A DNA stretch of 64,000 nt from Escherichia phage vB_EcoM_phAPEC6. Below are positions 12,278-60,533 of the stretch, one piece after another (position 1 is the stretch's first letter; every line of letters starts with the position of its first letter). The notes beneath the pieces were generated by a model that made no database searches, was not told the DNA's origin, and saw only the letters and a program-made list of their open reading frames with translations. Both the position numbers and the translations under genes were made by a program. The stretch lies in the sequence record MK817115.1; one strand, 5' to 3'.

Positions 12278-13510
12278 TTACTTATACCATTGCATTTCTC
12301 TAATATCAATGATAATTTTTGATGCTAACTTGATGTTTGGTTTTTTAGGAAGTACTGATTTCTTATATAGAACATCACGAATGTATTGTACTTTATCATC
12401 GAAATATTCTAATACTTCTTCATACTTCCATTTACCATTACGAATATCCATCAACATTTGTGCATCTGGTCGTTTAACTTGAATAATTCCACTTTGTAAC
12501 GCTTCTTCTGCACTATTCAAAAGTCGGATTGTGTGCATAGCATGTTTACAATCGTATCCGTGTTGTGATTCTAAAATAGCACGTTTGGCATTACGATTTT
12601 CTTTCCATTTATGATAACTTTTCCTATTCTCACTATTTTCCTGATATTCTTTTTCGTTAAATTTGACAATTAGTTCTGGTTTGGTTTTCAACTCTTCAGT
12701 ACTACGTTCTTTTGAAAAATAACGCAATGAACCATCATGGTTAATAGTGCTTTCATTAGGATTCTTAACAATCGCAAAAATGTTTTCTCCGTAATGAATT
12801 AGTTCATAACCATTATTAAAATTCAATAAATTGAAATCACGATCAAGAATTTTTTCAGTAGTGTAGTTATGCACTAATCTTACGAAATGATATTGCTTTA
12901 ATGGATTTTTCGAAACTAACTGCAATGATGTATCACGCATATATTTTTCAAAATCAATCTTTTTAGCATTAAATGGATGTAAGTTGGATGTATCTAAACG
13001 TTCAACAAGATACTGTGGGAATGAATCATACATCCACGCAAGAACCTCATCGACAGGGTGTTCTTCTAAAATCTCATTTAATCGTTTTTCAGCAATACGC
13101 TCTTTATCCATCCAACCGTGATGATTTGTCATACGCTTAATCTGATTATATGCATATCCAGTGTATGAAAATGCAATCTTGGAACTAAGAAGTTTTTGGT
13201 TAAATGAACGAAGATAGTCATAAATTTCAGTACTTTCCACAATGTGTTCAGGTTCAACCCAAAGTGATTCAAGAATATTAGGGTTAGCTTCAGTGTATAA
13301 TTTTAAATACTGATTCAACTCATAGAATTTAGTATCTTCTTCGCTTTTGTCAGCTACCTCGTTGACCTTATAGAAGGGTGTAAGAATAAATTCTTTATTA
13401 GCAAGAAAAATACCACGATAATCAGTATCACTTTCCGGTGTACTGGTTCCGTAGGCTTGTGACCCAGCCAAGTGTTTCACTATTGTTTGTTCAATATATT
13501 GGTTATTCAT
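12278..13510 (-). CDS. Pol-beta-superfamily nucleotidyltransferase-domain protein
   Basis: 410 aa; N-terminal GSQAYGTSTPESDTDYRG fits the minimal NTase motif GS-x10-DxD. Confidence 0.5.
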   Translation of the reverse strand: MNNQYIEQTIVKHLAGSQAYGTSTPESDTDYRGIFLANKEFILTPFYKVNEVADKSEEDTKFYELNQYLKLYTEANPNILESLWVEPEHIVESTEIYDYLRSFNQKLLSSKIAFSYTGYAYNQIKRMTNHHGWMDKERIAEKRLNEILEEHPVDEVLAWMYDSFPQYLVERLDTSNLHPFNAKKIDFEKYMRDTSLQLVSKNPLKQYHFVRLVHNYTTEKILDRDFNLLNFNNGYELIHYGENIFAIVKNPNESTINHDGSLRYFSKERSTEELKTKPELIVKFNEKEYQENSENRKSYHKWKENRNAKRAILESQHGYDCKHAMHTIRLLNSAEEALQSGIIQVKRPDAQMLMDIRNGKWKYEEVLEYFDDKVQYIRDVLYKKSVLPKKPNIKLASKIIIDIREMQWYK

Positions 13511-31274: not shown

Positions 31275-32714
31275 TTACATATTTTCTTCAGCAAATTCTG
31301 CAAGTGGTGAACGAACAACACCTTCTAGTTCGATGACACGACAACCTGCCCAATCTTTAAACTTCTCAGTTACATATGTCAAACCACTGTTAACAGGACT
31401 AATAAACTTACTGTCAATCTGACTCAAGTTACCCATAATTACTACTTTACAGTTTAATCCTGCTCGTGTCAAGATTGTTTTGGCTTGTGCAGGTGTAATG
31501 TTTTGGAATTCATCAACTACTAGAATAGTGTTGGTGAATGAACGTCCACGTACAAAGTTTAGTGCTTTAAATTGAATAACATTACGTTTCATAATCTCTT
31601 CAATACTACCTTGAGGGTTAGCATCATCTTTATGAAGAAACTCTAACGCGTCAATTGCGGCTCCACAGAATGGAATCACTTTTTCTGCTTCTGAACCTGG
31701 CAAGAAACCAATATCTTCAAACTGTGAGTCTTGAGTTTTAGAGAAGATGATTCGGTCGTATTTACGTTTTTCCAGTACTAATTCTAATGCAGTAGCAATC
31801 GTAATTAGTGTTTTACCAGTACCAGCAGAACCTAGCAGTACTGTTAGATGTACATCAGGATCGAGAATACTGTTGATGGCGAGTGCTTGTTGGATATTCT
31901 TTGCTTTAATATCCCATACTTTAGCACGTAAAGCTACTGATTGTCCAATATCTTGGAATACCAAAATATCTTCTGGTGTTAGTGTTCCATCATCTTCCTC
32001 AATTGCTGATTGACCTTCGTACACAAATAATACGTCTGCATCATCATATAGATAATCACCGATGCATAGATTTTGTGGGAGCAAATGCTCAATCAAGCTT
32101 TTGGAAATGTAATGATACAAACGACGACCAACTTGTTCGGATTGAATATTAGTATTGGTTAAGTTGCTGTATACTTCCCAAAAATTGATTTCCAAATGGT
32201 GTTGACCAATGTGAATCAAATCACTATCACCAATAACAATATCATGGCGATAATCTTGTACCTCGACACCATAACTTAGTGCTTTGATACGCATGTTGAT
32301 ATCACGAGTTACCAGTACTGATTCTGTTGCTAAAGCTACCAGAATGATTTTATCATCAGGTACTGTGCTTTTGAGAAGGGTTTGAACTTTCTCTTCTGAA
32401 CCTTTAGTACGAATTAGTGCTTCAGCTTCTTCGTTTGTAATAACAAACAATTTGCTATCAGGATTCATATTGGTATGAACATCAGCAATATTAACACCAG
32501 TACTACTAATCTCATCATGTGATGCATCTGCAATAATTGCTTCAATGTTACGAATAGCAACACGAGCATCGCGTGAAACATCTACATTACGACTCTTAAT
32601 TGAATCCAATTCTTCCAGTACTGTAAATGGTAGAATGATTGCAGCACCATCAAAAGCAATAGATGCATTAGGGTCAGATAGTAGTACGTTTGTGTCAATT
32701 GTATATTTTTTCAT
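31275..32714 (-). CDS. phoH: PhoH-like ATPase with N-terminal PIN domain
   Basis: 479 aa; Walker A LGSAGTGKT, Walker B VVDEFQN; N-terminal PIN-like acidic residues. Confidence 0.8.
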   Translation of the reverse strand: MKKYTIDTNVLLSDPNASIAFDGAAIILPFTVLEELDSIKSRNVDVSRDARVAIRNIEAIIADASHDEISSTGVNIADVHTNMNPDSKLFVITNEEAEALIRTKGSEEKVQTLLKSTVPDDKIILVALATESVLVTRDINMRIKALSYGVEVQDYRHDIVIGDSDLIHIGQHHLEINFWEVYSNLTNTNIQSEQVGRRLYHYISKSLIEHLLPQNLCIGDYLYDDADVLFVYEGQSAIEEDDGTLTPEDILVFQDIGQSVALRAKVWDIKAKNIQQALAINSILDPDVHLTVLLGSAGTGKTLITIATALELVLEKRKYDRIIFSKTQDSQFEDIGFLPGSEAEKVIPFCGAAIDALEFLHKDDANPQGSIEEIMKRNVIQFKALNFVRGRSFTNTILVVDEFQNITPAQAKTILTRAGLNCKVVIMGNLSQIDSKFISPVNSGLTYVTEKFKDWAGCRVIELEGVVRSPLAEFAEENM

Positions 32715-32774
32715 AAAACATCCTTGAGTTATGAGTACATCCTTGTACTCGACTAATGTTATTGACTCGGATTA

Positions 32775-33077
32775 TTACATATTTGGTTCGTATTCAACAT
32801 AGCAACGTGAACCTCGAACCTTTTCTTCCCAGCACTCCTGGTAAACAAGTTGACCAATTGAAACTGGTTCTCTTGATAGTCCATTACGTACTTCACCATT
32901 TTGGGTTTTATACATAAATGAACATTTGGACTCGCTACATTGTCCTAAACTAACAACTTCTGCGGTATTGTAGTGAATGTTGGTACGCTTAGTGTTCTCG
33001 TGATACTGTCCGAACCAAAGAACTCCTGCACCTAACAGAACAGTACAAATAAGACTTTTGATGTGTGTTTGAATCAT
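32775..33077 (-). CDS. hypothetical secreted/membrane protein
   Basis: 100 aa; N-terminal hydrophobic segment LICTVLLGAGVLWF. Confidence 0.4.
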   Translation of the reverse strand: MIQTHIKSLICTVLLGAGVLWFGQYHENTKRTNIHYNTAEVVSLGQCSESKCSFMYKTQNGEVRNGLSREPVSIGQLVYQECWEEKVRGSRCYVEYEPNM

Positions 33078-33394
33078 AATGAGTTAAATCCATTGTTTAA
33101 GTATGTTTCAATATTAATTTTACCAACAGGATTACTACTGTGAACAAAGTACTCAAACGGTTCTTTAATATTATTATCAAACATATAATCAATAAGAAAC
33201 TTAGCAAAAGAATATCCAGTCTTTTCGTCTTCGCTCACATCACCCAAGTCATGGTCGAATGATACAAATGCTGGAATTCCATTTTCAATAACATATTCAC
33301 ATGCACTTTTAAAGTCACGACATACCACCATATCTTGGTTTGGATAATATAGATTTGCATCACGAATATCATCCAAAAACATTGAGTAAGACAT
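33074..33394 (-). CDS. hypothetical protein
   Basis: 106 aa; FLDDIR...SFDHDLG motifs, function not identified by eye; co-oriented with Nudix and Sir2. Confidence 0.4.
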   Translation of the reverse strand: MSYSMFLDDIRDANLYYPNQDMVVCRDFKSACEYVIENGIPAFVSFDHDLGDVSEDEKTGYSFAKFLIDYMFDNNIKEPFEYFVHSSNPVGKINIETYLNNGFNSL

Positions 33395-33403
33395 GTTAAA
33401 CTC

Positions 33404-33955
33404 CTATAGATAACTAATTAGTAAGTTTTCTTTTTGAACCAGATACTCCAATTCTTGTCTTGCTGTACCGATGAAGTTCTGTGTCATAAGATTATTATAT
33501 CCCGCTTCTCGATTTTGTCCCTTAGAATAACGAGAAATATGACATAAATTTACACCAGCAACTTCTGCACTTGCATGTTTAGCATTAGTGTATCCATCTC
33601 TAATGTGTTTCAACTCGTCATAGGTTACTTCATAGCTAAAACTGTGACTGTTTGCACCTGGGTAAATTTCAAAAGTTTTGAGTGGTCGAAGATGGGAAAC
33701 AAAAATATTGTAATCCATTTCTTCTTGAACTTCACGACGCAACGCATCTTCTAGTGAGATATCAGTACTTTCTACGGTTCCACCACATCCACCAAGAAGA
33801 CCATCCCATCGTAATTGCAGTAATACTAAATTTACTTCTGGTATATCATTCAACTCATAGTTTTTGTAAGGGTTGCATTTTCTTGCAAAGAAATAACAAA
33901 ATACAAAATTTGCACGTGTGCCATATTCACCAAAGGGAACTTCTTTAACACTCAT
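33404..33955 (-). CDS. Nudix hydrolase
   Basis: 183 aa; Nudix-box-like GGTVESTDISLEDALRREVQEEMDY (REUxEE core present, spacing and final Gly atypical). Confidence 0.55.
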   Translation of the reverse strand: MSVKEVPFGEYGTRANFVFCYFFARKCNPYKNYELNDIPEVNLVLLQLRWDGLLGGCGGTVESTDISLEDALRREVQEEMDYNIFVSHLRPLKTFEIYPGANSHSFSYEVTYDELKHIRDGYTNAKHASAEVAGVNLCHISRYSKGQNREAGYNNLMTQNFIGTARQELEYLVQKENLLISYL

Positions 33956-34710
33956 TTCATACGTTCCTTAATTATAGTCTCTAGATGCGGTATTGCTTTG
34001 GTTGCTGGCTTGATAACTTTTTCATTAAACAAAAAATCATTATCATTTTTACGAATGTTAACATTAACACTATAACATGGTAATGCTGCTGCTAATCTCG
34101 ACCATACCAGTACTGTATCGCTACTACCAATTACAATAACTGTATCATTTTCATTAAGAGATTTCAACACATTATTTCGTTCTTCGTAAATTGGTAAGCG
34201 AATACCATCAACATAACGATGATATTCTCCAATCATTACTACATTTGGTTTAGCAAAAACATCATGTTTTGGTATGTATGGTTCGTATCCGCAGTTAATA
34301 ACATTATAATCATCGGAATTGATACTATAATTTTCAATAACTTCGCACAAGTTTCCATGAAGTTTAAGCTCATGACCACCAATACGAGTATAAAGATCGT
34401 CCATGTTAGAAGTCATATGAAGGAAGCAATCACCATATTGATCTTCTAACGATTTTATAAAATAATGCATTGCATTCGGTTCGCATTGTCCCAATTTTAC
34501 ACGTAATGTATTATAGAAAGAATGAACAACATGATATTTTGTAGTTAAACTAGCAATGTTACATACATCATTAATTTTAAATGTATCCCACAAACCATCA
34601 TCAAATCGAAAAGGTTCCATACCACTTTCAACAGAAAGTCCTGCACCTGATATAATCAGTAATCGCTTTTTACCTTCATTGCTTATAAATTTTTCTGATA
34701 TCATATTCAA
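33952..34710 (-). CDS. Sir2-family NAD-dependent protein
   Basis: 252 aa; sirtuin motifs GAGLSVESGMEPFR, HG, GSS; no obvious Zn ribbon. Confidence 0.55.
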   Translation of the reverse strand: MNMISEKFISNEGKKRLLIISGAGLSVESGMEPFRFDDGLWDTFKINDVCNIASLTTKYHVVHSFYNTLRVKLGQCEPNAMHYFIKSLEDQYGDCFLHMTSNMDDLYTRIGGHELKLHGNLCEVIENYSINSDDYNVINCGYEPYIPKHDVFAKPNVVMIGEYHRYVDGIRLPIYEERNNVLKSLNENDTVIVIGSSDTVLVWSRLAAALPCYSVNVNIRKNDNDFLFNEKVIKPATKAIPHLETIIKERMK

Positions 34711-34907
34711 TCCTTATAAAAAACAATTAAATATATTGATAATAACAGAATGATTCCAATATGATAGGCATACATAAAATTATTATCTTTGTGATAACCA
34801 TTGGATTTCAAGTCCCTATATAAGCATTTAGCATTGTTATAAATTACAACAATAGAAAAAACTATAAAAAAACTCAAAACCCATTCATAAATTGTGTATG
34901 CCATCAT
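34707..34907 (-). CDS. small membrane protein
   Basis: 66 aa, two hydrophobic helices. Confidence 0.35.
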   Translation of the reverse strand: MMAYTIYEWVLSFFIVFSIVVIYNNAKCLYRDLKSNGYHKDNNFMYAYHIGIILLLSIYLIVFYKD

Positions 34908-34934
34908 CTATTCTCTCTTATAATATTAGTACTT

Positions 34935-35528
34935 TTAATATTTTAAAACATCAAACTCTTCGCTTACGCTTGTTACATTATCACTAACAATTTTAAAAAT
35001 TGATTTGATACGTTCGTGTAGTGGTTTTTTAGATTCGTTCTCAACTTCAATATATGCTTGCATTGCTGCAATTGCATGATATGTCCCACTACCTACTGCG
35101 GTAATTCTTGTTTTAGGTTGTAGTACTGAAAAGTCTTCTTGAACTTCATAGATTGTATGATTGTGGAGAATGATAAATTGTCCACCTCCTACATCTTGTG
35201 ATGCATCTCGTGCACCCCATTCTTCTTTAAACATTTGACGAATAATTGGAATAACTTTAAGAACCAAATATTGTGAAAATGTTTGACTAGCATCTTGTTC
35301 AGGTAAATTAAGGTTATAATTTAACAACTGACCCATACGAAATGATGTAGTATAACCCAATGCCATTACTTCTTTAGTTCTAGTTAGTCCATCATCATGT
35401 AACTTGATAAATTCTTTCTCGAATACCTTTGGCTCAGTTTGAACAGTTTTTGTAAATCCATTGCTTCCTAACTTATCCCCAGCAATAAAAGAACTTACTC
35501 CGTCAGTGTGTGCAATAATACAGGTCAT
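34935..35528 (-). CDS. HslV-like Ntn-hydrolase peptidase
   Basis: Start moved to ATG 35528 (MTCIIAHTDGVSSFIAGDKLGSNG resembles HslV MTTIVSV...VIAGDGQATLGN); AVGSGTYHAIAA resembles HslV GSGSPYALGAA. Confidence 0.45.
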   Translation of the reverse strand: MTCIIAHTDGVSSFIAGDKLGSNGFTKTVQTEPKVFEKEFIKLHDDGLTRTKEVMALGYTTSFRMGQLLNYNLNLPEQDASQTFSQYLVLKVIPIIRQMFKEEWGARDASQDVGGGQFIILHNHTIYEVQEDFSVLQPKTRITAVGSGTYHAIAAMQAYIEVENESKKPLHERIKSIFKIVSDNVTSVSEEFDVLKY

Positions 35529-35785
35529 AAAATAGCTCCAATTGCAAATAATGTTGTGTATAAGATATAAATTAGTGCTCCTAACAACATTAGGCACACC
35601 AAGTATGAAGTTGATAGTACATAATAAATTATTGCTTCGAATTTTGAATTGAACTTCATTGTAGTTGAATCAATAAAGCCATTACGATAATCTTTGTAAA
35701 TGAAAACTGTTAGAAAAATAACTGTAGCATACATTACTACAGTAGCATAAAAAATAATAGATGTCAAGTTTTGGATGTTTGTCAT
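35525..35785 (-). CDS. membrane protein
   Basis: 86 aa, three hydrophobic segments. Confidence 0.4.
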   Translation of the reverse strand: MTNIQNLTSIIFYATVVMYATVIFLTVFIYKDYRNGFIDSTTMKFNSKFEAIIYYVLSTSYLVCLMLLGALIYILYTTLFAIGAIL

Positions 35786-35855: not shown

Positions 35856-36479
35856 TTATTGTTTGACTGAACCGTAAAAAACCAGTTCTGGTTTTGTTAA
35901 TATTACAACATCTTCACCACGAGAACGACTAACTCTAAATAGAACTTCTGGTGGGATTCCATTTGCTGCATATAGTGAAAAAAGGAAACCTACCTTTGTT
36001 GCCATTTCTTCGGTAAAAGTTGATAACTGTCTTACAGACACAAATGAATTATCACCATCAGTAACATTACTTTTAATCGAAATGTTATGAAGACCCAGTA
36101 CTGAGCGATTTGTCATATATCGCTTTTCGGGAGATACACTAAAGAATACCACAGTACATGCTGAATTGCAATACCTAGAAACAATTAAATTTATCCCATT
36201 GTCTCTAACAAAGTTTGCCATTCGAATACCTGCATCAAAATCACCACCAGGAGATGTAATTGTGATGGTATCATAGTGTTCTTTATCATACAACTCTATC
36301 ATACGCTTGAGTGACCCATCTGTAATATCTGATATGAAATATACATTTCGGGTTTCAGGATTATACTTTATCACATTTTTACTTTCAATACCAGCACTGG
36401 CTGGAAAATTTATTAACAATAGAAACATTGCTGCTTGTATCACTTCAAGCCATAGTCTTTTCATATAACAAGTCCTCAA
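35856..36479 (-). CDS. secreted ClpP/SppA-fold serine peptidase-like protein
   Basis: 207 aa; signal peptide; ITSPGGDFDAGIRMANFV matches the ClpP-fold SPGG motif; start may be the internal ATG (MKRLWLEV). Confidence 0.45.
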   Translation of the reverse strand: MRTCYMKRLWLEVIQAAMFLLLINFPASAGIESKNVIKYNPETRNVYFISDITDGSLKRMIELYDKEHYDTITITSPGGDFDAGIRMANFVRDNGINLIVSRYCNSACTVVFFSVSPEKRYMTNRSVLGLHNISIKSNVTDGDNSFVSVRQLSTFTEEMATKVGFLFSLYAANGIPPEVLFRVSRSRGEDVVILTKPELVFYGSVKQ

Positions 36480-41305: not shown

Positions 41306-42097
41306 TTAAATTTCAAATACAAATTTAGGATTGTAATCAAAATTCTCACAAGCTCCACTGTATGATTCATAGCCTCGTGGATTACAAATGATACGTGTCT
41401 TACCAATGTGGTAGTCAAAACTACTATGAACATGACCATGAATCCAAACATCAGCACCCAAATCTTCAATGTACTGATCCATATCGGAACAGTAACAACC
41501 ATTCAGTGAATCATTTTTATATTTTGGTGAAACACTTTGATAACTTGGTGCGTGATGGGTAACCACGATTACCTTGAAATCATTATCATGCATAAAGCGA
41601 ACTGTGTCAATAGAATTTTTGATAAATTGTTTATCTTTGTGATGCATAAACTCAGTATCATCTGGTGTCAGTTTCTTACGCCAAGGCTCTGATGTTGTTC
41701 CATGACGGATATGTTTGTAATCGTTCATCTTCAGACGAGCATCAAACTTCGTCAAAGAATTACCTTTATCGAAGTCTGTCCACAGAGTACTACCAACAAG
41801 CAGTACTCCATCCAGCCATACAAATTTGTTTTGCAAAAAGATGAAATTAGGAATCTCATCTTGCATATCGGACAGTACTTTATGCGTTTTGTGGATATTG
41901 GAACCATAATATTCATGATTGCCAGGAACCAGTACTACATTCTTAAACTGCTTACATAGTGATTCTATACCAGTACGGTAACGACTGCGTTTAACTTCAT
42001 CGAAGTCCCCAGCAATAATCAGTACTGTATCACTGTAATCACCACTATGGAGGTAATCAGTACCACCGTGTACGTCAGACGTTACAACAAATTTCAT
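41306..42097 (-). CDS. calcineurin-like metallophosphoesterase
   Basis: 263 aa; motifs SDVHGG, GDFDE, GNHEY, VTHHAP, IHGHVH. Confidence 0.7.
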   Translation of the reverse strand: MKFVVTSDVHGGTDYLHSGDYSDTVLIIAGDFDEVKRSRYRTGIESLCKQFKNVVLVPGNHEYYGSNIHKTHKVLSDMQDEIPNFIFLQNKFVWLDGVLLVGSTLWTDFDKGNSLTKFDARLKMNDYKHIRHGTTSEPWRKKLTPDDTEFMHHKDKQFIKNSIDTVRFMHDNDFKVIVVTHHAPSYQSVSPKYKNDSLNGCYCSDMDQYIEDLGADVWIHGHVHSSFDYHIGKTRIICNPRGYESYSGACENFDYNPKFVFEI

Positions 42098-43546: not shown

Positions 43547-44749
43547 TTATAGATAATACTTTCCAATATAAAGTGGATTACTAATTGATAGTTGAACGTG
43601 ACACGGCTTATCTTGGTAGTAACGAGAACTTGATGTTTTGCGTTCATTTGGTGGGAAGAATGGGGAACGATAGCCATTCCATGTACTAAATGATGAGTGT
43701 TCATTAATATCAACATCCATTACCATAATCCCATTATCATCAATTTGAACTGGATATGCACTAAAGCGTTCAAATTTATCATTATAATGGATATTATAAT
43801 CTCCACTACGCCCATAATAACTACGCGTTGTATTATTACTTACACCAAAAAATACGCGATATGTTTGTTCATTATCTTTAGTCATAAATGGTACGTTCTC
43901 GTTGAAACGTCCATTATTCATAAGATCATCAACATTTATTTCTTCATATTTAATTTTTAGGTCTTTTGCTTTAAATGATTTATTGTGTACCAGTACTGGA
44001 ATGTTAGATTCACCTAATGGGTTATGTCTGTTTGTTCTATAGCTTTGCCAAAAATCATTAGCAAGTTTAATTTCTTCATCTGCCGTAGTCTTCTTATTCA
44101 AGAGTGCACGAGGTTCCAGATTGTAATTATCCAAACGTTGATTCAATGCATAAGTTCCACGAGTACTGTTGAAAAGTAAATGATAAACAGAACTTTTGTC
44201 GGGGTATGCAAATTCTTTAGTTTTCTTTATACAAATTGCATGAACTTTACCGCAGTAATAGTAATCTTCTTTGAGATAAGTGAAACCATCACCAACTTTA
44301 AGACCTGCTACAGTTTCTTTTTGTTGTTCTTTTTTATTTTCTTTTTCAACTAACTTAGCAAACGTTTTTGTTTTACCATTAATTAATTCTAAGTTATTGT
44401 TGAAAAACATTGGGTCTACAAAAACACCTTTGATTATATCGTTATTGATAATTAAATCATTCATGTTTTTGGCACTAATCATAAATTCAAATCCTTCTGG
44501 GTGACGGATCGTGAAATATGTTTCTCGTGCATGAGTTGTTAATTTATCAACTACACAAAATCCCGTAGTTGGAACGTTGTCAATATATAACGATGGAAGA
44601 TTGTTCTTCTTTGCCCAGTACTCTGCTCTCTCTTTCTTTGTTTCAAACGCTTTTGTATGTGATTTTGTTGCATCGATAATAAAACCATCAACTTGGTTGT
44701 GGTTTACATAGGAACGTGCAACAAATAACTTCTCTGGAAAATCCATCAA
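43547..44749 (-). CDS. hypothetical protein
   Basis: 400 aa ORF. Confidence 0.5.
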   Translation of the reverse strand: MMDFPEKLFVARSYVNHNQVDGFIIDATKSHTKAFETKKERAEYWAKKNNLPSLYIDNVPTTGFCVVDKLTTHARETYFTIRHPEGFEFMISAKNMNDLIINNDIIKGVFVDPMFFNNNLELINGKTKTFAKLVEKENKKEQQKETVAGLKVGDGFTYLKEDYYYCGKVHAICIKKTKEFAYPDKSSVYHLLFNSTRGTYALNQRLDNYNLEPRALLNKKTTADEEIKLANDFWQSYRTNRHNPLGESNIPVLVHNKSFKAKDLKIKYEEINVDDLMNNGRFNENVPFMTKDNEQTYRVFFGVSNNTTRSYYGRSGDYNIHYNDKFERFSAYPVQIDDNGIMVMDVDINEHSSFSTWNGYRSPFFPPNERKTSSSRYYQDKPCHVQLSISNPLYIGKYYL

Positions 44750-45165
44750 ATAGTCCTCATTGTGCTGATTGCTTTTAATGTGTCAAACAATGCACCATAT
44801 TTTACTTGCATTAGTTGATCACCAGCAGGAAGATTCATACGCATAACAGCCATGTCTTCAATCATTTCAGACGTACACAGTACTGCTACACAGGTAATAG
44901 CATCATTCAATCCAGCTTCATTGAATTTGGCAAACGGAACTTTTCCCTGTTTGCTAAGGTTGTTATAATAAGAATTTAACTTATCATGTCCACCAGCATT
45001 TAGTACTACAATAGTTTCGTGTTCATAGTACCATTCATCAATAATAGTACTGAAAGCAGTACCTTCATATTCTTTAATTAGTTTAACACCAGCATGGAAT
45101 GCTTGAATACCAGCTTGGACACCTTGGCAGTACATATTAGTTAAACAATACAATTTCATTTCCAT
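44746..45165 (-). CDS. hypothetical protein
   Basis: 139 aa ORF. Confidence 0.4.
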   Translation of the reverse strand: MEMKLYCLTNMYCQGVQAGIQAFHAGVKLIKEYEGTAFSTIIDEWYYEHETIVVLNAGGHDKLNSYYNNLSKQGKVPFAKFNEAGLNDAITCVAVLCTSEMIEDMAVMRMNLPAGDQLMQVKYGALFDTLKAISTMRTI

Positions 45166-45668: not shown

Positions 45669-46427
45669 TTACCTTTTGAAACGATTGAATGAGTACTCAT
45701 CTTTTTCTTTACGTAAGTATCTCATTCCACCACTTTGTGGAGTAGCGAGAGTTAAGTCACCCGTCAAGAACTGACTATCAATCCAAATGCGATTACCGTA
45801 AATTAGTGGATCTGTAACTGCTGTATGTCCACTAAAGACACAATGCACTCCATCTAACTTAGGTGCATAATATGTATTATTAGTTCTACAATAATCGAAT
45901 GTTTTTCTATCCCACAAGCACTTATCAATTATATCAGCACTAAGTGATTTTGTCCCATTAACAAATCGTTCCCATGTTGTATATTCCAACGGAACTCCAG
46001 CATGAACTAACCCAATCTTCAATCCTCGGTGATTGATTTGGATAATCATAGGGAGATCCTTTAAGTACTGACGAAAGAATTGAATGCCTGTTCCTCCAAC
46101 TTCATCAAGGAATTTATCACCACCATTACTTATCCAACAATGATACCAATCTCGAAGTGTTTCCGAATCAACGCACATCATCTCATGATTACCCGCAATC
46201 ATGTAACGATTTTCTCCGAACAAAAATTCAAAAAGGAGCTTTGAATTTTGTTCTCCACGGTCGATAATATCACCTACACTGAAAACATAATCATTGTGTG
46301 TAATACCAAATTCTTTCACTGTAGCATCCCATAGTTTACCATTACCATGCAAATCACCTACAATGTATAAATCTTTATCATCAGGTACGGTTACTTCTAA
46401 GAAGTGTTTCATTATTACTCCAACCAT
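45669..46427 (-). CDS. PPP-family Ser/Thr protein phosphatase
   Basis: 252 aa; GDLHGN, GDIIDRG, GNHE motifs. Confidence 0.75.
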   Translation of the reverse strand: MVGVIMKHFLEVTVPDDKDLYIVGDLHGNGKLWDATVKEFGITHNDYVFSVGDIIDRGEQNSKLLFEFLFGENRYMIAGNHEMMCVDSETLRDWYHCWISNGGDKFLDEVGGTGIQFFRQYLKDLPMIIQINHRGLKIGLVHAGVPLEYTTWERFVNGTKSLSADIIDKCLWDRKTFDYCRTNNTYYAPKLDGVHCVFSGHTAVTDPLIYGNRIWIDSQFLTGDLTLATPQSGGMRYLRKEKDEYSFNRFKR

Positions 46428-49597: not shown

Positions 49598-49842
49598 TAT
49601 AATAAACCTCTCACATAAAACATTGATGAAAATAGATAATCATCAGTACTTGTGTTTAGATGTTTAGAAAAGCTATATTTTTTATGTTTTTTTTCGTATA
49701 AAGACAATCTATAGAACATTTCTATATTTTCTAAGTATTCTTTTTGTAATAACATCTGTGTTTTTACATTCATTATAATATTCCTTAAAAGAAAAAGGGA
49801 CCAACATATGATCCCTTTTGTATTAGAAATTTCCTTCTGCAA
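49597..49842 (-). CDS. hypothetical protein
   Basis: 81 aa ORF overlapping the pnk 3' region; uncertain. Confidence 0.3.
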   Translation of the reverse strand: MQKEISNTKGIICWSLFLLRNIIMNVKTQMLLQKEYLENIEMFYRLSLYEKKHKKYSFSKHLNTSTDDYLFSSMFYVRGLL

Positions 49843-50755
49843 CTTGAAAAACTTTCAAGCCAAGTAGCTTACGCCACATGAATACGACTTGTGTTCGGTC
49901 ATCATATACCTTTTTAACATCGTAATGATCAACCACATTTTTCATGTACAGGTCGAATTTTACAACATCATCAGGACGTTTATCATCGATATCTCGCATA
50001 AACAATGCATCGTAAGGAACACCCCAATTCTTAAGCCACTGTTCGGTATCCGCACGACACCCTTCAGTACGCCCACTCATGACGATAATCTTGCGTTTAT
50101 GAAAAACTGCTTCAGCGATAATAGACAAAATAACTTCTTCATCAGGTGTATCCTGAAGAACAGTACTTTCATCGTAAGGATTACGACCCCATTTATGAGC
50201 AAGAGTTCCATCGATATCAACGATGATAGCAGCTTCGCGTGAATTACCATAGTAACCAATGTGTAATGCTTTACTATAATAGTACGTATCTGCCATTTTG
50301 TCAATGATATCATCTGGTACTGAACGCTCACGCTGGAGGTTATATTTCTTACAAAGTTTTACGAACTCTTTAATCTTAAAGAATTCATGAACATCTGCAC
50401 CACGGTCTTCATTAGGTACAAAATCATCATAGAAGTTCTTTTCTTTGTAATCATAACCATTATCTGTAGCCCATACTTTCCAGAGATTACGGAAATGTGG
50501 TTTAAGGTTTGTATCGGATACTATGATGTTCCAACCATTCTCTGCTGCTGAATTTGCTGCACTGAACTGTAAATTATCTACGTACTGCTCATTAGCATCG
50601 TTGAATTTGTAAGCATCATGTGACCCAGCCATAGATTCACGAATATCATCACGGTTGATGTTGATAGTCTTGGATTTGGCTTTTTTAATCTCTTGCACTG
50701 CCCATGTAGTTTTACCACACCCAGGCAATCCAACTGTTAGTGTGATAGTTGGCAT
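49823..50755 (-). CDS. pseT: polynucleotide 5'-kinase / 3'-phosphatase (T4 PseT-like)
   Basis: 310 aa; P-loop GLPGCGKTT; HAD phosphatase motif DIDGTL; C-terminus DDRTQVVFMWRKLLGLKVFQVAEGNF matches T4 Pnk C-terminus. Confidence 0.85.
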   Translation of the reverse strand: MPTITLTVGLPGCGKTTWAVQEIKKAKSKTININRDDIRESMAGSHDAYKFNDANEQYVDNLQFSAANSAAENGWNIIVSDTNLKPHFRNLWKVWATDNGYDYKEKNFYDDFVPNEDRGADVHEFFKIKEFVKLCKKYNLQRERSVPDDIIDKMADTYYYSKALHIGYYGNSREAAIIVDIDGTLAHKWGRNPYDESTVLQDTPDEEVILSIIAEAVFHKRKIIVMSGRTEGCRADTEQWLKNWGVPYDALFMRDIDDKRPDDVVKFDLYMKNVVDHYDVKKVYDDRTQVVFMWRKLLGLKVFQVAEGNF

Positions 50756-51578: not shown

Positions 51579-52721
51579 CTAAAAATCCTTTAGTACAATT
51601 TTCATGTATTTTATAAGAGTCTCTTTGTAATCAACTTTCTTATTGTTATACATTGCAAAGGCCAAGCCCTGACGATTCAGTTCATTAGTTAAACACTCCT
51701 GAACCTTCATTGCGAATTCCTTTCGCTCCAAGTGCTTGTGTTCCTTGACGAAGCTTTCTACTTCATCTTGTAATGCATTATAGCACGAAAATACCAATTG
51801 TTCCATTCTTAATATCTTTTGCATAGCATATTCATCAGTACTGAACAATTGTTTTAAATCATCACTTGAACCATTTAATACTGCTTCATATAAATGAGAA
51901 TCAATAATAATACTATCTTTTGTAAGATGTAATGAACTGTACCAGTCAGTCTTTATTTTACACATTGTCCCATTATTTAGGATGCACACAAAACCCTCAA
52001 TATCAAGCATTTTATGAACTTCCTCCACGCTTTCACGGAAGGTATTTCGTACCGGAAAAGTGTGATGAATATCTTTTCCAGTCATATTAGTACTGTACTG
52101 TGCAAGACATGGAAACTTATCACGTAGTGCTTTACCACATAGCAACTCACCACTCACACGATGACGAACGTTCAGTACAAACAGTTGTTCTACCTGATAT
52201 GGTAATACAATTCGGTACTCTGGGCTTGTATACTCCATATTAACTGTGTAACCTAAACGTTCCGCTTCGTCGATGTACTGATACAAATTCTGGTTCTCGT
52301 TAATAAGTCGAGTACTGTTAATCGCATGGTCAGAATACAATGCAGTATGTGATTTACAACGAATCTCACCATCATTATCACGGTAAGTACTGATAATCGA
52401 ACCATCCAACTTAGGCATCACTACCGCAATGTCATCGCATGTGGTGTTAGCAGGGAACATTGTAGCAGGATTCTCGTAAGCATTGAAGAACTTTTTCATT
52501 GTACGTGCTGCACAACGTATCATTTCACCTTCTTCATCAATTTCCCACATAGAGCCACGGGTTTCCAACGCATTTGGTTGCATGAAATCAGTGTATGATG
52601 CTAGACGATAACTGAATACACGATACGTGCCACCAGCAGGACTTTTATGATCCACATAAAAGAATGCATCGTTTGTATTACATAAGTGCATTAAATCTTC
52701 ATATATTTGCAAAAGGGTCAT
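51579..52721 (-). CDS. rnlA: RNA ligase 1 (T4 Rnl1/gp63-like)
   Basis: 380 aa; adenylation motif KLDGS; YRVFSYRLASY, KIKTDWYSSLH and GSSDDLKQLFSTDEY align with T4 Rnl1 segments. Confidence 0.85.
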   Translation of the reverse strand: MTLLQIYEDLMHLCNTNDAFFYVDHKSPAGGTYRVFSYRLASYTDFMQPNALETRGSMWEIDEEGEMIRCAARTMKKFFNAYENPATMFPANTTCDDIAVVMPKLDGSIISTYRDNDGEIRCKSHTALYSDHAINSTRLINENQNLYQYIDEAERLGYTVNMEYTSPEYRIVLPYQVEQLFVLNVRHRVSGELLCGKALRDKFPCLAQYSTNMTGKDIHHTFPVRNTFRESVEEVHKMLDIEGFVCILNNGTMCKIKTDWYSSLHLTKDSIIIDSHLYEAVLNGSSDDLKQLFSTDEYAMQKILRMEQLVFSCYNALQDEVESFVKEHKHLERKEFAMKVQECLTNELNRQGLAFAMYNNKKVDYKETLIKYMKIVLKDF

Positions 52722-59481: not shown

Positions 59482-60015
59482 TTATTTCCTCATGTATTTT
59501 ATAACGTCTTCAAATAATTGTATTTTTAAGTCCTCGTCATTTCCAGGTAAAAACTCACGAAAACTATCAAAATCTTCATTTTTTGCGAAGTTACGCATTT
59601 GTGTTGAGCTATATTGACTTACATTACGGTCAATACCTGCCTGAATTGCTTTTATACTACAAAAATTATACAACTTACCATTGTACATGTCAAGAGTTTT
59701 TTGAAAAGAATCAATACGGTCAGAACCACAAATGAAAAGAACATCTAAGTACTTTCCATCCAGTTCTCTCATTATATCAAATAGATTGTCTTCTGTGTAG
59801 ATGTTCTCTTGCACTGAAGGATAGAATCCCTCTGTATAATACATTTTTAGTTCAGGTGGGAGTGGGTTTTTTATATTGTCAGTACTGGTGCTTAGATATA
59901 TTTTTAAATCAGCATTGTACTGTTCTTGTAATGTTTTGGCCTTTTCAAAAACTAAACCATGTCCACGATGTACAGGATTAATACGACCAAACGTTAATAC
60001 ACATGTTTCTTTCAT
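59482..60015 (-). CDS. HxGH-type nucleotidyltransferase, likely NMN adenylyltransferase-like
   Basis: 177 aa; FGRINPVHRGH (HxGH) near N-terminus and SSTQMR (ISSTxxR-like) near C-terminus. Confidence 0.5.
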   Translation of the reverse strand: MKETCVLTFGRINPVHRGHGLVFEKAKTLQEQYNADLKIYLSTSTDNIKNPLPPELKMYYTEGFYPSVQENIYTEDNLFDIMRELDGKYLDVLFICGSDRIDSFQKTLDMYNGKLYNFCSIKAIQAGIDRNVSQYSSTQMRNFAKNEDFDSFREFLPGNDEDLKIQLFEDVIKYMRK

Positions 60016-60533
60016 AAATTCTTCATCACCAACCCAAGAGATTTAAGATAATTGATTTTAGCAGTGGTTAAGTACTTATCCAGTACTATCAGACACGAAG
60101 GAAATGGTGCTGAATCTGTTTTCTTATCGGGTTCTTCTGGTATACCAAATCGTAATCTTCCCTTAATAAAACAAATACAATCACATATTTTAGCAGCATA
60201 ATCCTGAAAAGCAATTGTGTCGGTTCTTGAGGGTACAAGAATAACTACAGTTGCCCCGTTATTATATGCATCTACTGCTTTAGATAACCAAGTTTTCAAG
60301 TCACTGTATGGTGGATTCAACCAAACTATATTATTTCCCCAATCCTGTGATAGTGAATCATCTTCTGGAGTGAAAAAATTATCACACAATGCAGTCTCAT
60401 CAACACAAGCAGCATCAAGTGTAAATCCCCATAACTCATCCAAATCTTCAAAGAAATCTTTGGGAGTTGTCCAGTTATCTTTTCCAGTACTGAAATGTAC
60501 TGAATGTTTTTTCGAAGCATCCTTCTTCGACAT
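60012..60533 (-). CDS. phage-type DNA N6-adenine methyltransferase (Dam-like)
   Basis: 173 aa; WGFTLDAAC and NPPY motifs. Confidence 0.5.
   Translation of the reverse strand: MSKKDASKKHSVHFSTGKDNWTTPKDFFEDLDELWGFTLDAACVDETALCDNFFTPEDDSLSQDWGNNIVWLNPPYSDLKTWLSKAVDAYNNGATVVILVPSRTDTIAFQDYAAKICDCICFIKGRLRFGIPEEPDKKTDSAPFPSCLIVLDKYLTTAKINYLKSLGLVMKNL

Follow-up and report, generated by a model that had tools for sequence, protein, structure and literature searches.

Escherichia phage vB_EcoM_phAPEC6 encodes, within the 64,000-nucleotide stretch of DNA analysed here (the window), a compact gene module comprising a sirtuin, a Nudix hydrolase and a receiver-like cREC protein, which we tentatively interpret as a sirtuin-centred phage unit predicted to process phosphorylated RNA ends in an NAD+-dependent manner. 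The original prediction had not recognized this gene combination as a described pathway, but it has already been described as a neighbourhood: Iyer, Burroughs, Anantharaman and Aravind (Viruses 2022, PMC9503650, section 3.7.3) reported 'sirtuin + 2H + Nudix + cREC + PIN endoRNase' in jumbo phages and predicted that the sirtuin acts like Tpt1/KptA in NAD+-dependent RNA repair. The module is of a known, computationally predicted kind, and neither the gene combination nor its role is new; literature searches on phage sirtuins of the zinc-less clade and on cREC returned computational papers only, with no experiments found. If the prediction is true, a sirtuin joins the enzymes acting on nucleic-acid phosphates, the receiver fold gains a catalytic role outside two-component signalling, and phages facing tRNA- and mRNA-cleaving host defences have a second, NAD-dependent RNA repair route.

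Organization and conservation of the gene module

The window belongs to an Asteriusvirus-type jumbo coliphage and is 100% identical to vB_EcoM_G17; the module lies on its minus strand. The three co-oriented genes originally noted are all open reading frames, encoding a zinc-less CobB-like sirtuin (Sir2; 33952..34710 from a TTG codon, or to 34704 from an ATG codon), a 183-residue NUDT16/X29-like Nudix hydrolase (33404..33955) and a 106-residue cyclic-phosphate-processing receiver-like protein (cREC; 33074..33394), and every motif quoted for them (GAGLSVESGMEPFR, LHG, GSS, REVQEE, FLDDIR and FDHDLG) is present. Their description as overlapping holds for Sir2 and Nudix, where the stop and start codons share 4 nt (ATGA), but not for Nudix and cREC, which are separated by a 9-nt gap holding a GGAG Shine–Dalgarno sequence. 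The ATG at 34704, giving a protein of 250 residues, is more likely to be the Sir2 start than the TTG at 34710, giving 252, because AGGA lies 6 nt upstream of the former and database homologues are 250 residues long.

The trio is tightly packed, but the packed unit is larger than the three-gene operon first proposed. At the Sir2 end, TM66 (34707..34907, minus strand), encoding a small membrane protein of 66 residues with a weak match to phrog_18969 'membrane protein', abuts the Sir2 start, its stop codon lying 2 nt ahead of the likely ATG; in phage K64-1, too, a pair of small membrane genes occupies this place. At the other end, the start of TM100 (32775..33077, minus strand) overlaps the cREC stop by 4 nt. 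TM100 encodes a membrane-anchored protein of 100 residues with four invariant cysteines (C47, C52, C82 and C92; phrog_14661, 1.2e-44), found at the same position in phages BF and K64-1 at about 43% identity. Start/stop coupling runs through TM66–Sir2–Nudix–cREC–TM100, and 60 nt downstream of TM100 begins PIN-PhoH (31275..32714, minus strand; Pfam PIN_4 7e-20 and PhoH 7e-44), a PhoH2-type RNase with an ATPase/helicase-like domain that is syntenic in K64-1 (80% identity) and BF (68%). PIN-PhoH is the counterpart of the 'PIN endoRNase' reported by Iyer et al., so that Sir2, Nudix, cREC and PIN all lie within 31275..34710 on one strand. A promoter and terminator scan of 30.5–37.5 kb counted 42 against 36.7 ± 6.2 in shuffled sequences, and no operon boundaries could be assigned from it. 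Between TM100 and PIN-PhoH lies a 7-bp hairpin, the folding of which does not exceed that of shuffled sequences (z = −1.1); an Rfam scan of the whole window gave no match, and a tRNA search of the window found none.

The gene order Sir2–Nudix–cREC–TM100–PIN-PhoH is kept in all eight Rak2-like IMG/VR loci and in about 70 GenBank jumbo-phage records. PIN-PhoH lies 300–380 nt from cREC in 8 of 8 Rak2-like loci, Nudix and cREC form a single fused ORF in 6 of 8, Sir2 and Nudix overlap in every listed Rak2-like record annotated there, and the distributions of these two genes co-vary perfectly within the group. Comparison with phage 121Q gives dN/dS values that show purifying selection on Sir2 (0.017), Nudix (0.13) and PIN-PhoH (0.02). 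Chance adjacency is rejected because the synteny is conserved and Nudix and cREC are fused in relatives; with the coupled start and stop codons, these features make the earlier idea of a coupled NAD+/ADP-ribose-type pathway a reasonable reading.

Protein families and predicted active sites

Profile searches place the sirtuin, the Nudix protein and the third protein in families well above the curated cut-offs, upholding the Sir2 and Nudix assignments made from motifs. The sirtuin matches Pfam SIR2 (PF02146) over profile positions 1–178 of 180 with 73.1 bits (gathering score 24; 3.7e-20), as well as phrog_2162 (2e-77), and its closest solved structure by sequence is E. coli CobB (1e-22). An AF2 model (pLDDT 92.3 overall and about 93–95 in the small domain) supports a sirtuin fold, its top Foldseek matches being CobB (6rxq and 1s5p; E about 1e-16, TM 0.75–0.83, 28% identity), followed by Sir2Af and SIRT5. 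The protein keeps GAGLSVESGMEPFR, GAGLS, FR, N102, D104 and the catalytic H118, and G22, G24, N102, D104 and H118 are invariant across 35 homologues. The zinc cysteines (CxxC...CxxC) are missing from this protein and from all aligned jumbo, rV5-like, T5-like and Vibrio phage homologues, and are kept in the cellular homologues P0163–P0166. Across the whole phage clade, GTSxxVxPA, the segment that forms the peptide β-staple in established sirtuin structures, is replaced by GSSDTVLxWS. A Tyr-x-x-Arg clamp for an acyl carboxylate (or a phosphate), as in CobB and SIRT5, was rejected: the Tyr is invariant, but the Arg at +3, the acyl-carboxylate-binding residue present in CobB and the cellular homologues, is Leu, leaving only the Arg at +4. 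Among the NCBIfam CobB/deacylase equivalogues, the best match was NF001755 at 93 bits against a cut-off of 318. Roughly 1,000 sequenced phages carry this zinc-less clade, among them T5-like, rV5-like and Rak2-like coliphages.

The Nudix protein matches Pfam Nudt16-like (PF22327; 68.8 bits against 27, 7.1e-19), NUDIX (PF00293; 30.3 bits against 21.1, 4.9e-7) and phrog_9999 (5e-90). In the PDB it aligns best, through residues 38–179 (about 142 residues), with human NUDT16 and Xenopus X29 (1e-12). The spacing of the Nudix box, GGxV(E/D)...R(R/N)ExxEE, is identical to that of NUDT16/X29, and R74-E75-V-Q-E78-E79, the REVQEE core, aligns column for column with R-E-L-R-E-E of human NUDT16. The protein is thus NUDT16/X29-like with an intact Nudix box, and is predicted to hydrolyse NDP-X substrates such as ADP-ribose conjugates, RNA caps or IDP. 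Hydrolysis of ADP-ribose was originally invoked for it, but NUDT16/X29 is a family known for RNA decapping and for cleaving ADP-ribose attached to macromolecules, and profile and sequence scans matched no named free-ADP-ribose pyrophosphatase family. A tblastn search of phages placed the gene in 74 phage records only, essentially the Rak2-like group; a word-indexed homologue search gave only 12 close relatives.

The third protein had been noted only as a small DHDLG-motif protein; its FLDDIR and FDHDLG motifs are present, but it belongs to an already named family, Pfam cREC_REC (PF20274; 80.5 bits against a cut-off of 27). A PDB sequence search gave no match, and the fold search alone was informative; the protein is predicted to have a receiver-domain fold and carries a conserved acidic pocket. 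Pfam scans of the examined window proteins found no histidine-kinase domain. A survey of 80 IMG/VR loci, whose queries did not include histidine kinases, found RNA ligases, PNK-type kinases, HAD-PNKP, Metallophos, Sir2, Nudix and Nampt as neighbours of cREC. The cyclic-phosphate phosphoesterase activity of cREC is itself a published prediction (PMC9503650 and PMC7824862).

Possible functions of the module

We tentatively favour processing of phosphorylated RNA ends. In phages unrelated to this one, the sirtuin clade and cREC turn up repeatedly beside genes for RNA ligases, kinases and phosphoesterases, an independent reproduction of the published links to RNA ligase, kinase and HAD_SAK genes. 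The rV5-like phage PVP-SE1 has the order Rnl1–cREC–AAA_33 (PNK-like) kinase–Sir2, with a MazG-like gene further on, and the T5-like phage NBEco001 has a gene for HAD_SAK_2 (4e-20), the Pfam 'HAD domain in Swiss Army Knife RNA repair proteins', downstream of Sir2 with one 183-nt ORF between them. Of 56 non-redundant IMG/VR cREC loci outside the Rak2-like group, 23 encode at least one of RNA ligase, PNK-type kinase and HAD-PNKP no more than 8 kb away, the ligase being present in 15 of them (counts without background control). In 10 of 80 loci (near-identical loci not collapsed, no background control) the distance between Rnl2 and cREC is at most 1.5 kb, and in the metagenomic locus L022 the two genes overlap by 4 nt. 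Nampt is nearby in 4 of the 56 loci. Outside the Rak2-like group, the genes that accompany cREC are those of RNA ligases and kinases rather than of NAD enzymes; within that group, the 8 kb around the module hold neither an RNA ligase nor a kinase. Further support comes from the RNA-repair-type genes of the window itself (Rnl1, Pnkp, PTH2-like and RlaP), from the experimentally documented cleavage of ADPR-cyclic phosphate by the Nudix enzyme NudC (Osterman et al., preprint) and from the action of NUDT16 on the ADP-ribose pyrophosphate of conjugates (PMC8883491).

In such a pathway, the zinc-less sirtuin would place NAD+-derived ADP-ribose on a phosphate oxygen and release nicotinamide, the likeliest target being the 2'-phosphate at a healed or sealed RNA break. 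The chemistry could proceed as on acyl groups, with attack at C1'' followed by attack of the ribose 2''-OH, aided by the conserved His, and in a Tpt1/KptA-like step the RNA phosphate would depart as ADP-ribose 1'',2''-cyclic phosphate. The invariant acidic and histidine pocket of cREC may open cyclic phosphates or strip phosphates, acting either on an RNA 2',3'-cyclic end, thereby making the 2'-phosphate substrate, or on the ADP-ribose cyclic-phosphate by-product. The Nudix enzyme would split the pyrophosphate of an ADP-ribose derivative, or of a cap-like RNA 5' end, to give AMP and ribose phosphates, and PIN-PhoH could serve as an RNA-directed helicase/nuclease partner. A more specific version, which we regard as doubtful, makes the zinc-less clade a nucleic-acid phosphate ADP-ribosyltransferase/2'-phosphotransferase that replaces Tpt1/KptA non-homologously, cREC a new class of cyclic-phosphate/phosphomonoesterase, and Nudix the enzyme that clears the ADP-ribose-phosphate by-product; if true, the three would make up an entire NAD+-dependent pathway of RNA end repair, assembled from folds not previously seen to carry out such chemistry.

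Several observations count against RNA-end processing. The phage already has a complete T4-type pair, a T4 Rnl1-like RNA ligase (51579..52721, minus strand; RNA_lig_T4_1 1e-15, T4_Rnl1_C 6.6e-17) and a T4 Pnkp-like kinase with a HAD 3'-phosphatase (49823..50755, minus strand; HAD_PNKP 1.6e-43, AAA_33 2.9e-13), and the T4-type pathway leaves no 2'-phosphate. These genes lie on the same strand at a distance of 16–19 kb from the module, the ligase at about 17 kb, and provide context only. PIN nucleases are metal-dependent and make no cyclic-phosphate ends. The distance of the ligase and kinase and the degenerate NAD-loop motifs of the K64-1 sirtuin orthologue (GNG...YD) likewise weigh against it, as does the acidity of Sir2, Nudix and cREC (pI 5.9, 5.4 and 4.2), which is weak evidence only on RNA binding; Tpt1/KptA, in contrast, is basic.

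Counter-defence, as originally suggested, is a less probable alternative. The module would then belong to the phage's NAD economy, its targets being soluble products of NAD+ that arise in the host immune response (ADP-ribose, ADPR-cyclic phosphate, ADPR-1''-phosphate or Thoeris-type signals). Nudix and cREC would break these down or recycle them, the resulting AMP and ribose phosphates supplying the resynthesis of PRPP and NAD+, and the sirtuin would use NAD+ to modify or toggle a target, perhaps switching off a defence protein of the host. The suggestion gains some support because related genera place NARP2-type NAD-salvage genes and an Acb1-like 2H gene directly upstream: Nampt and NMNAT-Nudix lie 1.7–5.5 kb upstream of the module in 7 of 8 Rak2-like loci, and a 2H gene matching Pfam Acb1 (anti-CBASS, 3.6e-15) lies about 1 kb upstream in 6 of 8. 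Such neighbours are as compatible with a counter-defence island as with RNA repair. A NARP2-type Nampt and NMNAT pair has been shown to defeat NAD-depleting defences (Osterman et al., preprint); Iyer et al. (PMC9503650) proposed that phage ADPr-processing domains mainly counter soluble signals. The Nudix–cREC fusion would also suit sequential action on one small molecule, and the four further loci with Nampt near cREC point the same way. However, signal degradation needs no NAD+-consuming sirtuin, no protein of the trio convincingly matches a PADLOC defence or anti-defence model, and the company that cREC keeps outside the Rak2-like group is not that of NAD enzymes.

The present phage, moreover, has lost the salvage and 2H genes. 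A tblastn search of the whole 352-kb genome with K64-1 Nampt gave a best E of 0.066 over 31 residues, and no Asteriusvirus record is among the 60 best phage Nampt hits. The 352-kb genome holds no NadM-like gene, and at E ≤ 1 a search of the 351,992-bp Asteriusvirus genome yielded no homologue of the BF 2H/Acb1-like protein; an HslV-like peptidase gene sits where relatives have Nampt and NMNAT-Nudix. The module is nevertheless retained, and so works without NAD-salvage and 2H genes. The gene earlier called NMNAT-like (59482..60015, minus strand) does exist and encodes a HIGH-superfamily nucleotidyltransferase of 177 residues with the HxGH signature (motifs GRINPVHRGH and YSSTQMR), but it is no more than a candidate NMNAT: the Pfam CTP_transf_like score of 17.3 bits is under the cut-off of 21, its family profile matches NadD (1.6e-6), PPAT (6e-6) and NMNAT (3e-4) in the PDB similarly weakly, and it has no Nampt partner. 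It matches phrog_3041 (8.5e-58) and phrog_395 (1e-24), with a remote link to a phrog of NadM-like proteins, and was not matched when K64-1 NadM was searched against the 351,992-bp genome. It lies 25 kb from the module beside a Dam methylase, and its family is often found as the N-terminal domain of 500–1,400-residue proteins. We regard it as a candidate NadD/PPAT-like nucleotidyltransferase. If counter-defence were true, the set of phage tools against NAD-based immunity would be wider; on either reading, the module is a small E. coli phage system that is directly testable.

We consider it rather improbable that the sirtuin is a protein lysine deacylase or protein ADP-ribosyltransferase derived from a CobB-like ancestor that remodels host or phage protein acylation, with Nudix removing O-acyl-ADP-ribose or ADP-ribose, or trimming ADP-ribosylated proteins, and cREC as an accessory phosphoesterase. 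In its favour, E. coli CobB, archaeal Sir2 and SIRT5, to which the protein comes nearest in structure and sequence, are all deacylases, the catalytic His and NAD-binding motifs are intact, GenBank annotates the protein as an NAD-dependent deacylase, and an acidic pI is ordinary for a protein-directed enzyme. NUDT16, in addition, cleaves the ADP-ribose pyrophosphate on conjugates, including protein-linked ADP-ribose (PMC8883491). The low score on the curated deacylase models, the loss of the zinc cysteines, the replaced GTSxxVxPA segment and the Leu at Tyr+3 speak against it, and it leaves unexplained the pairing with phosphoesterase (cREC and HAD_SAK_2), RNA ligase and kinase genes.

RNA turnover without ADP-ribose chemistry, the sirtuin being functionally separate, seems to us quite unlikely. 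Here Nudix would turn 5' ends bearing a cap (NAD, Np4N) or a triphosphate into 5'-monophosphates, with cREC healing 3' ends and PIN-PhoH responsible for cleavage or unwinding. The NUDT16/X29 family has its origin in RNA decapping, with removal of metabolite caps reported for mammalian NUDT16 (PMC7337524), and the conserved PIN-PhoH gene immediately downstream and the linkage of cREC to RNA ligases elsewhere are in keeping with such a role. However, no RNA-binding domain was detected in Nudix or cREC, and the Sir2–Nudix overlap and perfect co-variation within the Rak2-like group argue for a function shared by the two. Two further ideas fail outright: a PADLOC scan of the trio and its neighbours gave no meaningful match that would make the module a copy of a known defence component, and a role in feeding the phage's own NAD salvage is ruled out here by the absence of Nampt and NadM.

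Relationship to known systems

Homologues of both enzymes of T4 Pnkp–Rnl1 tRNA repair are encoded in the same window as the module, and in rV5-like phages the sirtuin and cREC lie between Rnl1 and a kinase; the T4 pathway itself needs no NAD+. The phage sirtuin has the Rossmann core, GAGxS, N/D and catalytic His in common with E. coli CobB and SIRT5, but differs in lacking the zinc ribbon cysteines, in having VLxWS in place of the β-staple VxPA and in the replaced Tyr+3 Arg. Similarly, the phage Nudix protein shares the Nudix-box spacing and REXXEE glutamates of human NUDT16 and Xenopus X29, whereas it has 183 residues, is often fused to cREC, and the snoRNA/m7G cap link of those enzymes is inconceivable in bacteria.

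The Tpt1/KptA–2H cyclic phosphodiesterase–Poa1p/macro pathway follows the same proposed logic, in which esterases clear the by-product: in Tpt1/KptA, NAD+ accepts the RNA 2'-phosphate to yield nicotinamide and ADP-ribose 1'',2''-cyclic phosphate. No part is homologous, with a sirtuin for the ART fold, cREC for 2H and Nudix for the macro domain, all with predicted activities, and a Pfam scan found no ART-fold Tpt1 domain in any module protein; the resemblance is best regarded as functional analogy, not membership.

NARP2 (Nampt and Nmnat; Osterman et al. 2024) adjoins the module in sister genera (K64-1, BF, CBB, GAP32 and others), but it is absent from this phage, and the module holds an NAD+ consumer rather than a builder. 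The Serratia phage BF-type neighbourhood (Iyer et al. 2022, configuration 1), the function of which is a published prediction, belongs to the same supergroup and has the same gene order. In contrast to the BF type, Nudix and cREC are separate genes here and 2H is absent genome-wide, and in contrast to seven of the eight related loci, the upstream Nampt and NMNAT-Nudix pair gives way to the HslV-like peptidase gene. The proteins of the two phages are 44% (Sir2), 46% (Nudix), 62% (cREC), 43% (TM100) and 68% (PIN-PhoH) identical.

Organization of the Sir2–Nudix–cREC module

The original prediction described three co-oriented, overlapping genes encoding a sirtuin, a Nudix hydrolase and a 106-aa protein with a DHDLG motif; all three open reading frames (ORFs) and every quoted motif are present in the window sequence, and a Pfam profile search bore out the first two family calls. 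The Sir2 gene (33952..34710, minus strand; Pfam SIR2, 3.7e-20; phrog_2162) is followed by the Nudix gene (33404..33955, minus strand; Pfam Nudt16-like, 7.1e-19, and NUDIX, 4.9e-7; phrog_9999) and by the gene for the 106-aa protein (33074..33394, minus strand; phrog_1479), which matches Pfam cREC_REC, the 'cyclic-phosphate processing receiver domain' (1.5e-22), and is hereafter referred to as cREC. Sir2 and Nudix overlap within an ATGA, whereas Nudix and cREC are separated by a 9-nt spacer containing GGAG, so that the description as overlapping genes holds for the first pair only. The Sir2 start is probably the ATG at 34704 rather than the TTG at 34710, since an AGGA lies 6 nt 5′ of this ATG and the sirtuin homologues in databases have 250 residues; this ATG lies 2 nt beyond the end of the gene for TM66, a membrane protein of 66 aa.

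Downstream, cREC overlaps by an ATGA with the gene encoding TM100 (32775..33077, minus strand), a 100-aa protein that is anchored in the membrane by its N terminus and in which C47, C52, C82 and C92 are invariant, and the PIN-PhoH gene (Pfam PIN_4, 7e-20; PhoH, 7e-44) starts 60 nt beyond TM100. TM100 matches no Pfam family, occupies the same position in Serratia phage BF and Klebsiella phage K64-1, and falls outside every mechanism proposed here. Nearly all genes of the window lie on the minus strand; no plus-strand ORF across the module reaches 90 aa, and each falls within one of the conserved genes. A scan of the module region for consensus promoters and terminators gave counts not above the shuffled expectation, the small intergenic hairpin of the module was not significant, and an Rfam search of the entire window returned no match.

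The window belongs to an Asteriusvirus-type jumbo coliphage. Positions 32700–35700 are 100% identical to Escherichia phage vB_EcoM_G17 and 99–100% identical to PBECO4-type phages (the counterpart of the window in phage ECO103 4-12-1 is 202541..264309), and comparison with 121Q gave dN/dS values of 0.017 for Sir2, 0.13 for Nudix and 0.02 for PIN-PhoH. In K64-1 and BF, members of the same Rak2-like group of jumbo phages, the order is colinear: a ClpP-like protease, a variable slot, Sir2, Nudix, cREC, TM100, PIN-PhoH and two further shared genes. The ClpP-like protease (35856..36479, minus strand; phrog_26024) shares 38% identity with its K64-1 counterpart, and the variable slot holds an HslV-like peptidase (34935..35597, minus strand; phrog_1040, 5.6e-25, with weak HslV NCBIfam matches) in Asteriusvirus, as opposed to an NMNAT-Nudix and a Nampt gene in the sister genera.

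Features of the sirtuin, Nudix and nucleotidyltransferase proteins

Sequence and AF2-model searches both identified Escherichia coli CobB, followed by archaeal Sir2 and SIRT5, as the nearest solved relatives of the sirtuin (model pLDDT 92.3; TM 0.75–0.83 to the nearest structures), and defence-type SIR2 proteins were absent among the top matches. The sirtuin retains an intact NAD loop (GAGLS...FR), N102/D104 and the catalytic H118, all of which are conserved in the homologue alignment. None of the aligned phage homologues (jumbo, rV5-like, T5-like and Vibrio) has the four zinc cysteines found in cellular sirtuins. In the jumbo-phage clade the GTSxxVxPA segment is replaced by GSSDTVLxWS, the other aligned phage homologues also lack the VxPA motif, and position Tyr+3, an arginine in CobB and cellular homologues, is a leucine in the phAPEC6 sirtuin. 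The score against the curated CobB equivalog models is far under the cut-off. Thus, the protein is a sirtuin by each tested feature save the zinc site and belongs to a distinct phage clade, which occurs in 986 GenBank phage records. In K64-1 Sir2 (L005:3707-4441) and two further homologues (P0131 and P0137), the NAD loop is degenerate (GAG to GNG, PFR to LYD, DGLW deleted); these Alcyoneusvirus-type orthologues still keep the catalytic histidine, and their enzyme may have a weakened function or a different one.

The Nudix protein aligns with human NUDT16 and Xenopus X29 over about 142 residues (E = 1e-12) with identical Nudix-box spacing, an affinity not mentioned in the published analyses; the term 'NUDT16' does not occur in PMC9503650. 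NUDT16 is known to decap RNA and to cleave the ADP-ribose pyrophosphate on conjugates (PMC7337524; PMC8883491). The Nudix of the module is found in only 74 GenBank phage records, essentially Rak2-like jumbo phages; in every listed Rak2-like record annotated there, Nudix overlaps Sir2, and in BF Nudix and cREC form a single 302-aa protein.

A separate nucleotidyltransferase (59482..60015, minus strand; 177 aa) had been called NMNAT-like. Its ORF and its HIGH (HRGH) and SSTxxR motifs are present, but the profile evidence does not single out NMNAT: the family profile matches NadD (1.6e-6), PPAT (6e-6) and archaeal NMNAT (3e-4) about equally, the protein itself falls below the Pfam cut-off and has no direct match in the PDB, and its link to NadM-like proteins is a remote one through PHROG neighbourhoods. 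This HIGH family (2,722 representatives) often forms the N-terminal domain of 500–1400-aa phage proteins with DUF5824 or Hint modules, which is unlike a housekeeping NMNAT. The gene overlaps by 4 nt with that of a Dam-type N6-adenine methyltransferase (60012..60533, minus strand); the module is 25 kb away, and the genome lacks Nampt.

Neighbourhoods of cREC and the sirtuin in other phages

The gene combination, at first not recognised as a described pathway, had in fact been published, with its function as a prediction. The name cREC comes from the 2021 survey of jumbo phages by Iyer et al., who stated that it was experimentally uncharacterised and proposed that the sirtuin removes RNA 2′-phosphates in a KptA-like manner, the associated esterases making the 2′-phosphate substrate or clearing ADPr>P (PMC9503650; PMC7824862). 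Our literature search yielded no subsequent experiments on cREC or phage sirtuins. We reproduced the two remaining published sirtuin configurations. In the rV5-like phage PVP-SE1, the order is Rnl1, cREC (phrog_1479, 2e-33), an AAA_33/PNK-like kinase and Sir2; genes for a metallophosphoesterase and a MazG-like protein are nearby. In the T5-like configuration, a single 183-nt ORF separates Sir2 from a downstream gene of the HAD_SAK_2 family ('Swiss Army Knife RNA repair' HAD, 4e-20).

cREC occurs in 139 GenBank phage records and has at least 559 relatives in IMG/VR, of which we surveyed the best 80 loci. All eight Rak2-like loci carry Sir2, a NUDT16-like Nudix and PIN-PhoH; Nudix and cREC are fused in six, Nampt and NMNAT-Nudix lie 1.7–5.5 kb upstream in seven, and a 2H gene lies about 1 kb upstream in six. 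The BF 2H gene (L004:2940-3386), which is the 2H member of the published neighbourhood and lies two positions upstream of Sir2, matches Pfam Acb1 (anti-CBASS) at 3.6e-15, above the gathering score, and is annotated as 'RNA ligase', yet is sub-threshold to 2_5_RNA_ligase2; the Acb1 match suggests a counter-defence role rather than RNA repair. A tblastn search of the whole 351,992-bp Asteriusvirus genome found no Nampt, NadM-like or Acb1-like 2H gene. The Asteriusvirus lineage is the exception among Rak2-like phages, having lost the NAD-salvage and 2H neighbours.

Outside the Rak2 group, the best 80 yielded 56 non-redundant cREC loci, none with a sirtuin or NUDT16-like Nudix. In counts made without a background control, 23 of them have at least one of RNA ligase, PNK-type kinase and HAD-PNKP within 8 kb (15 with a ligase), a calcineurin-type phosphoesterase accompanies 15 and Nampt four; with near-identical loci left uncollapsed, 10 of the 80 loci place Rnl2 no more than 1.5 kb from cREC. 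In one metagenomic phage contig, Rnl2 and cREC overlap by 4 nt and are followed by Rnl1 and a kinase; such tight adjacencies are hard to ascribe to chance. In the T4-like Aeromonas phage 65, the cREC stop overlaps the start of a 252-aa protein (L006:4345-5103; phrog_4182) with no Pfam match, which may be another cREC partner; a CCA-type tRNA nucleotidyltransferase and an HD phosphohydrolase are nearby.

The window itself encodes, 10–20 kb from the module, Rnl1, a complete Pnkp, a PTH2-type peptidyl-tRNA hydrolase (44746..45165; 2e-5) and an RlaP 'RNA repair pathway' polymerase-beta-type nucleotidyltransferase (12278..13510; 8e-16); it also encodes two calcineurin-like phosphoesterases (41306..42097 and 45669..46427). 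The PTH2, RlaP and two phosphoesterase genes are scattered along the minus strand. A phage of the same type carries, outside the stretch corresponding to the window and far from the module, a seven-tRNA cluster (OR844650.1, 31069..34895; Thr, Asn, Met, two Ser, Arg and Gly), whose tRNAs are potential clients for a phage RNA-repair system.

Possible routes for the module

In each of three phage lineages, the sirtuin is consistently accompanied by a phosphoesterase (cREC or HAD_SAK), and in many cases by RNA ligase and kinase genes as well. In Tpt1 and sirtuins alike, an oxyanion attacks C1″ of NAD+, and the ribose 2″-OH then attacks the acyl or phosphoryl centre. By this analogy, a sirtuin acting on phosphate is chemically plausible. 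The sirtuin would ADP-ribosylate an RNA phosphate, most likely a 2′-phosphate, releasing nicotinamide and ADP-ribose cyclic phosphate; cREC would open or remove the phosphates on the RNA end, the by-product or both; the NUDT16-like Nudix would split the ADP-ribose pyrophosphate, a reaction shown for NudC on ADPR-cP (Osterman et al. preprint); and PIN-PhoH would be the RNA-handling partner. We infer each step, and regard this route as the likeliest of those considered, though tentative, at somewhat less than an even chance.

Several observations weaken it. No RNA ligase or kinase lies within 8 kb of the module in any of the eight Rak2-like IMG/VR loci; the phage already has a complete T4-type Pnkp–Rnl1 pathway, which makes no 2′-phosphate; PIN nucleases are not known to make cyclic ends; and Sir2, Nudix and cREC are all computed to be acidic. 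Furthermore, the sister-genus neighbours resemble counter-defence genes, and these NARP2-type (Nampt plus NMNAT) and Acb1-like genes favour a counter-defence or NAD-economy role directed at soluble derivatives of ADP-ribose, which we consider rather unlikely, because phAPEC6 keeps the module without them and degrading signals needs no sirtuin. The similarity to CobB favours a genuine protein deacylase or ADP-ribosyltransferase whose by-product is cleaned up, but we judge this unlikely: the zinc site is lost, the substrate motif is altered, and such a role leaves the phosphoesterase partners unexplained. RNA-end turnover by Nudix decapping, cREC and PIN-PhoH, with the sirtuin separate, is very doubtful.

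Collectively, the phAPEC6 module is a reduced version of a published, computationally predicted kind. To the published account our analysis adds that the Nudix is of the NUDT16 type, that the phage sirtuin clade as a whole is zinc-less, that the 2H neighbour in relatives is Acb1-like, and that the Asteriusvirus lineage has lost its NAD-salvage and 2H neighbours; it also provides an independent count of cREC contexts.
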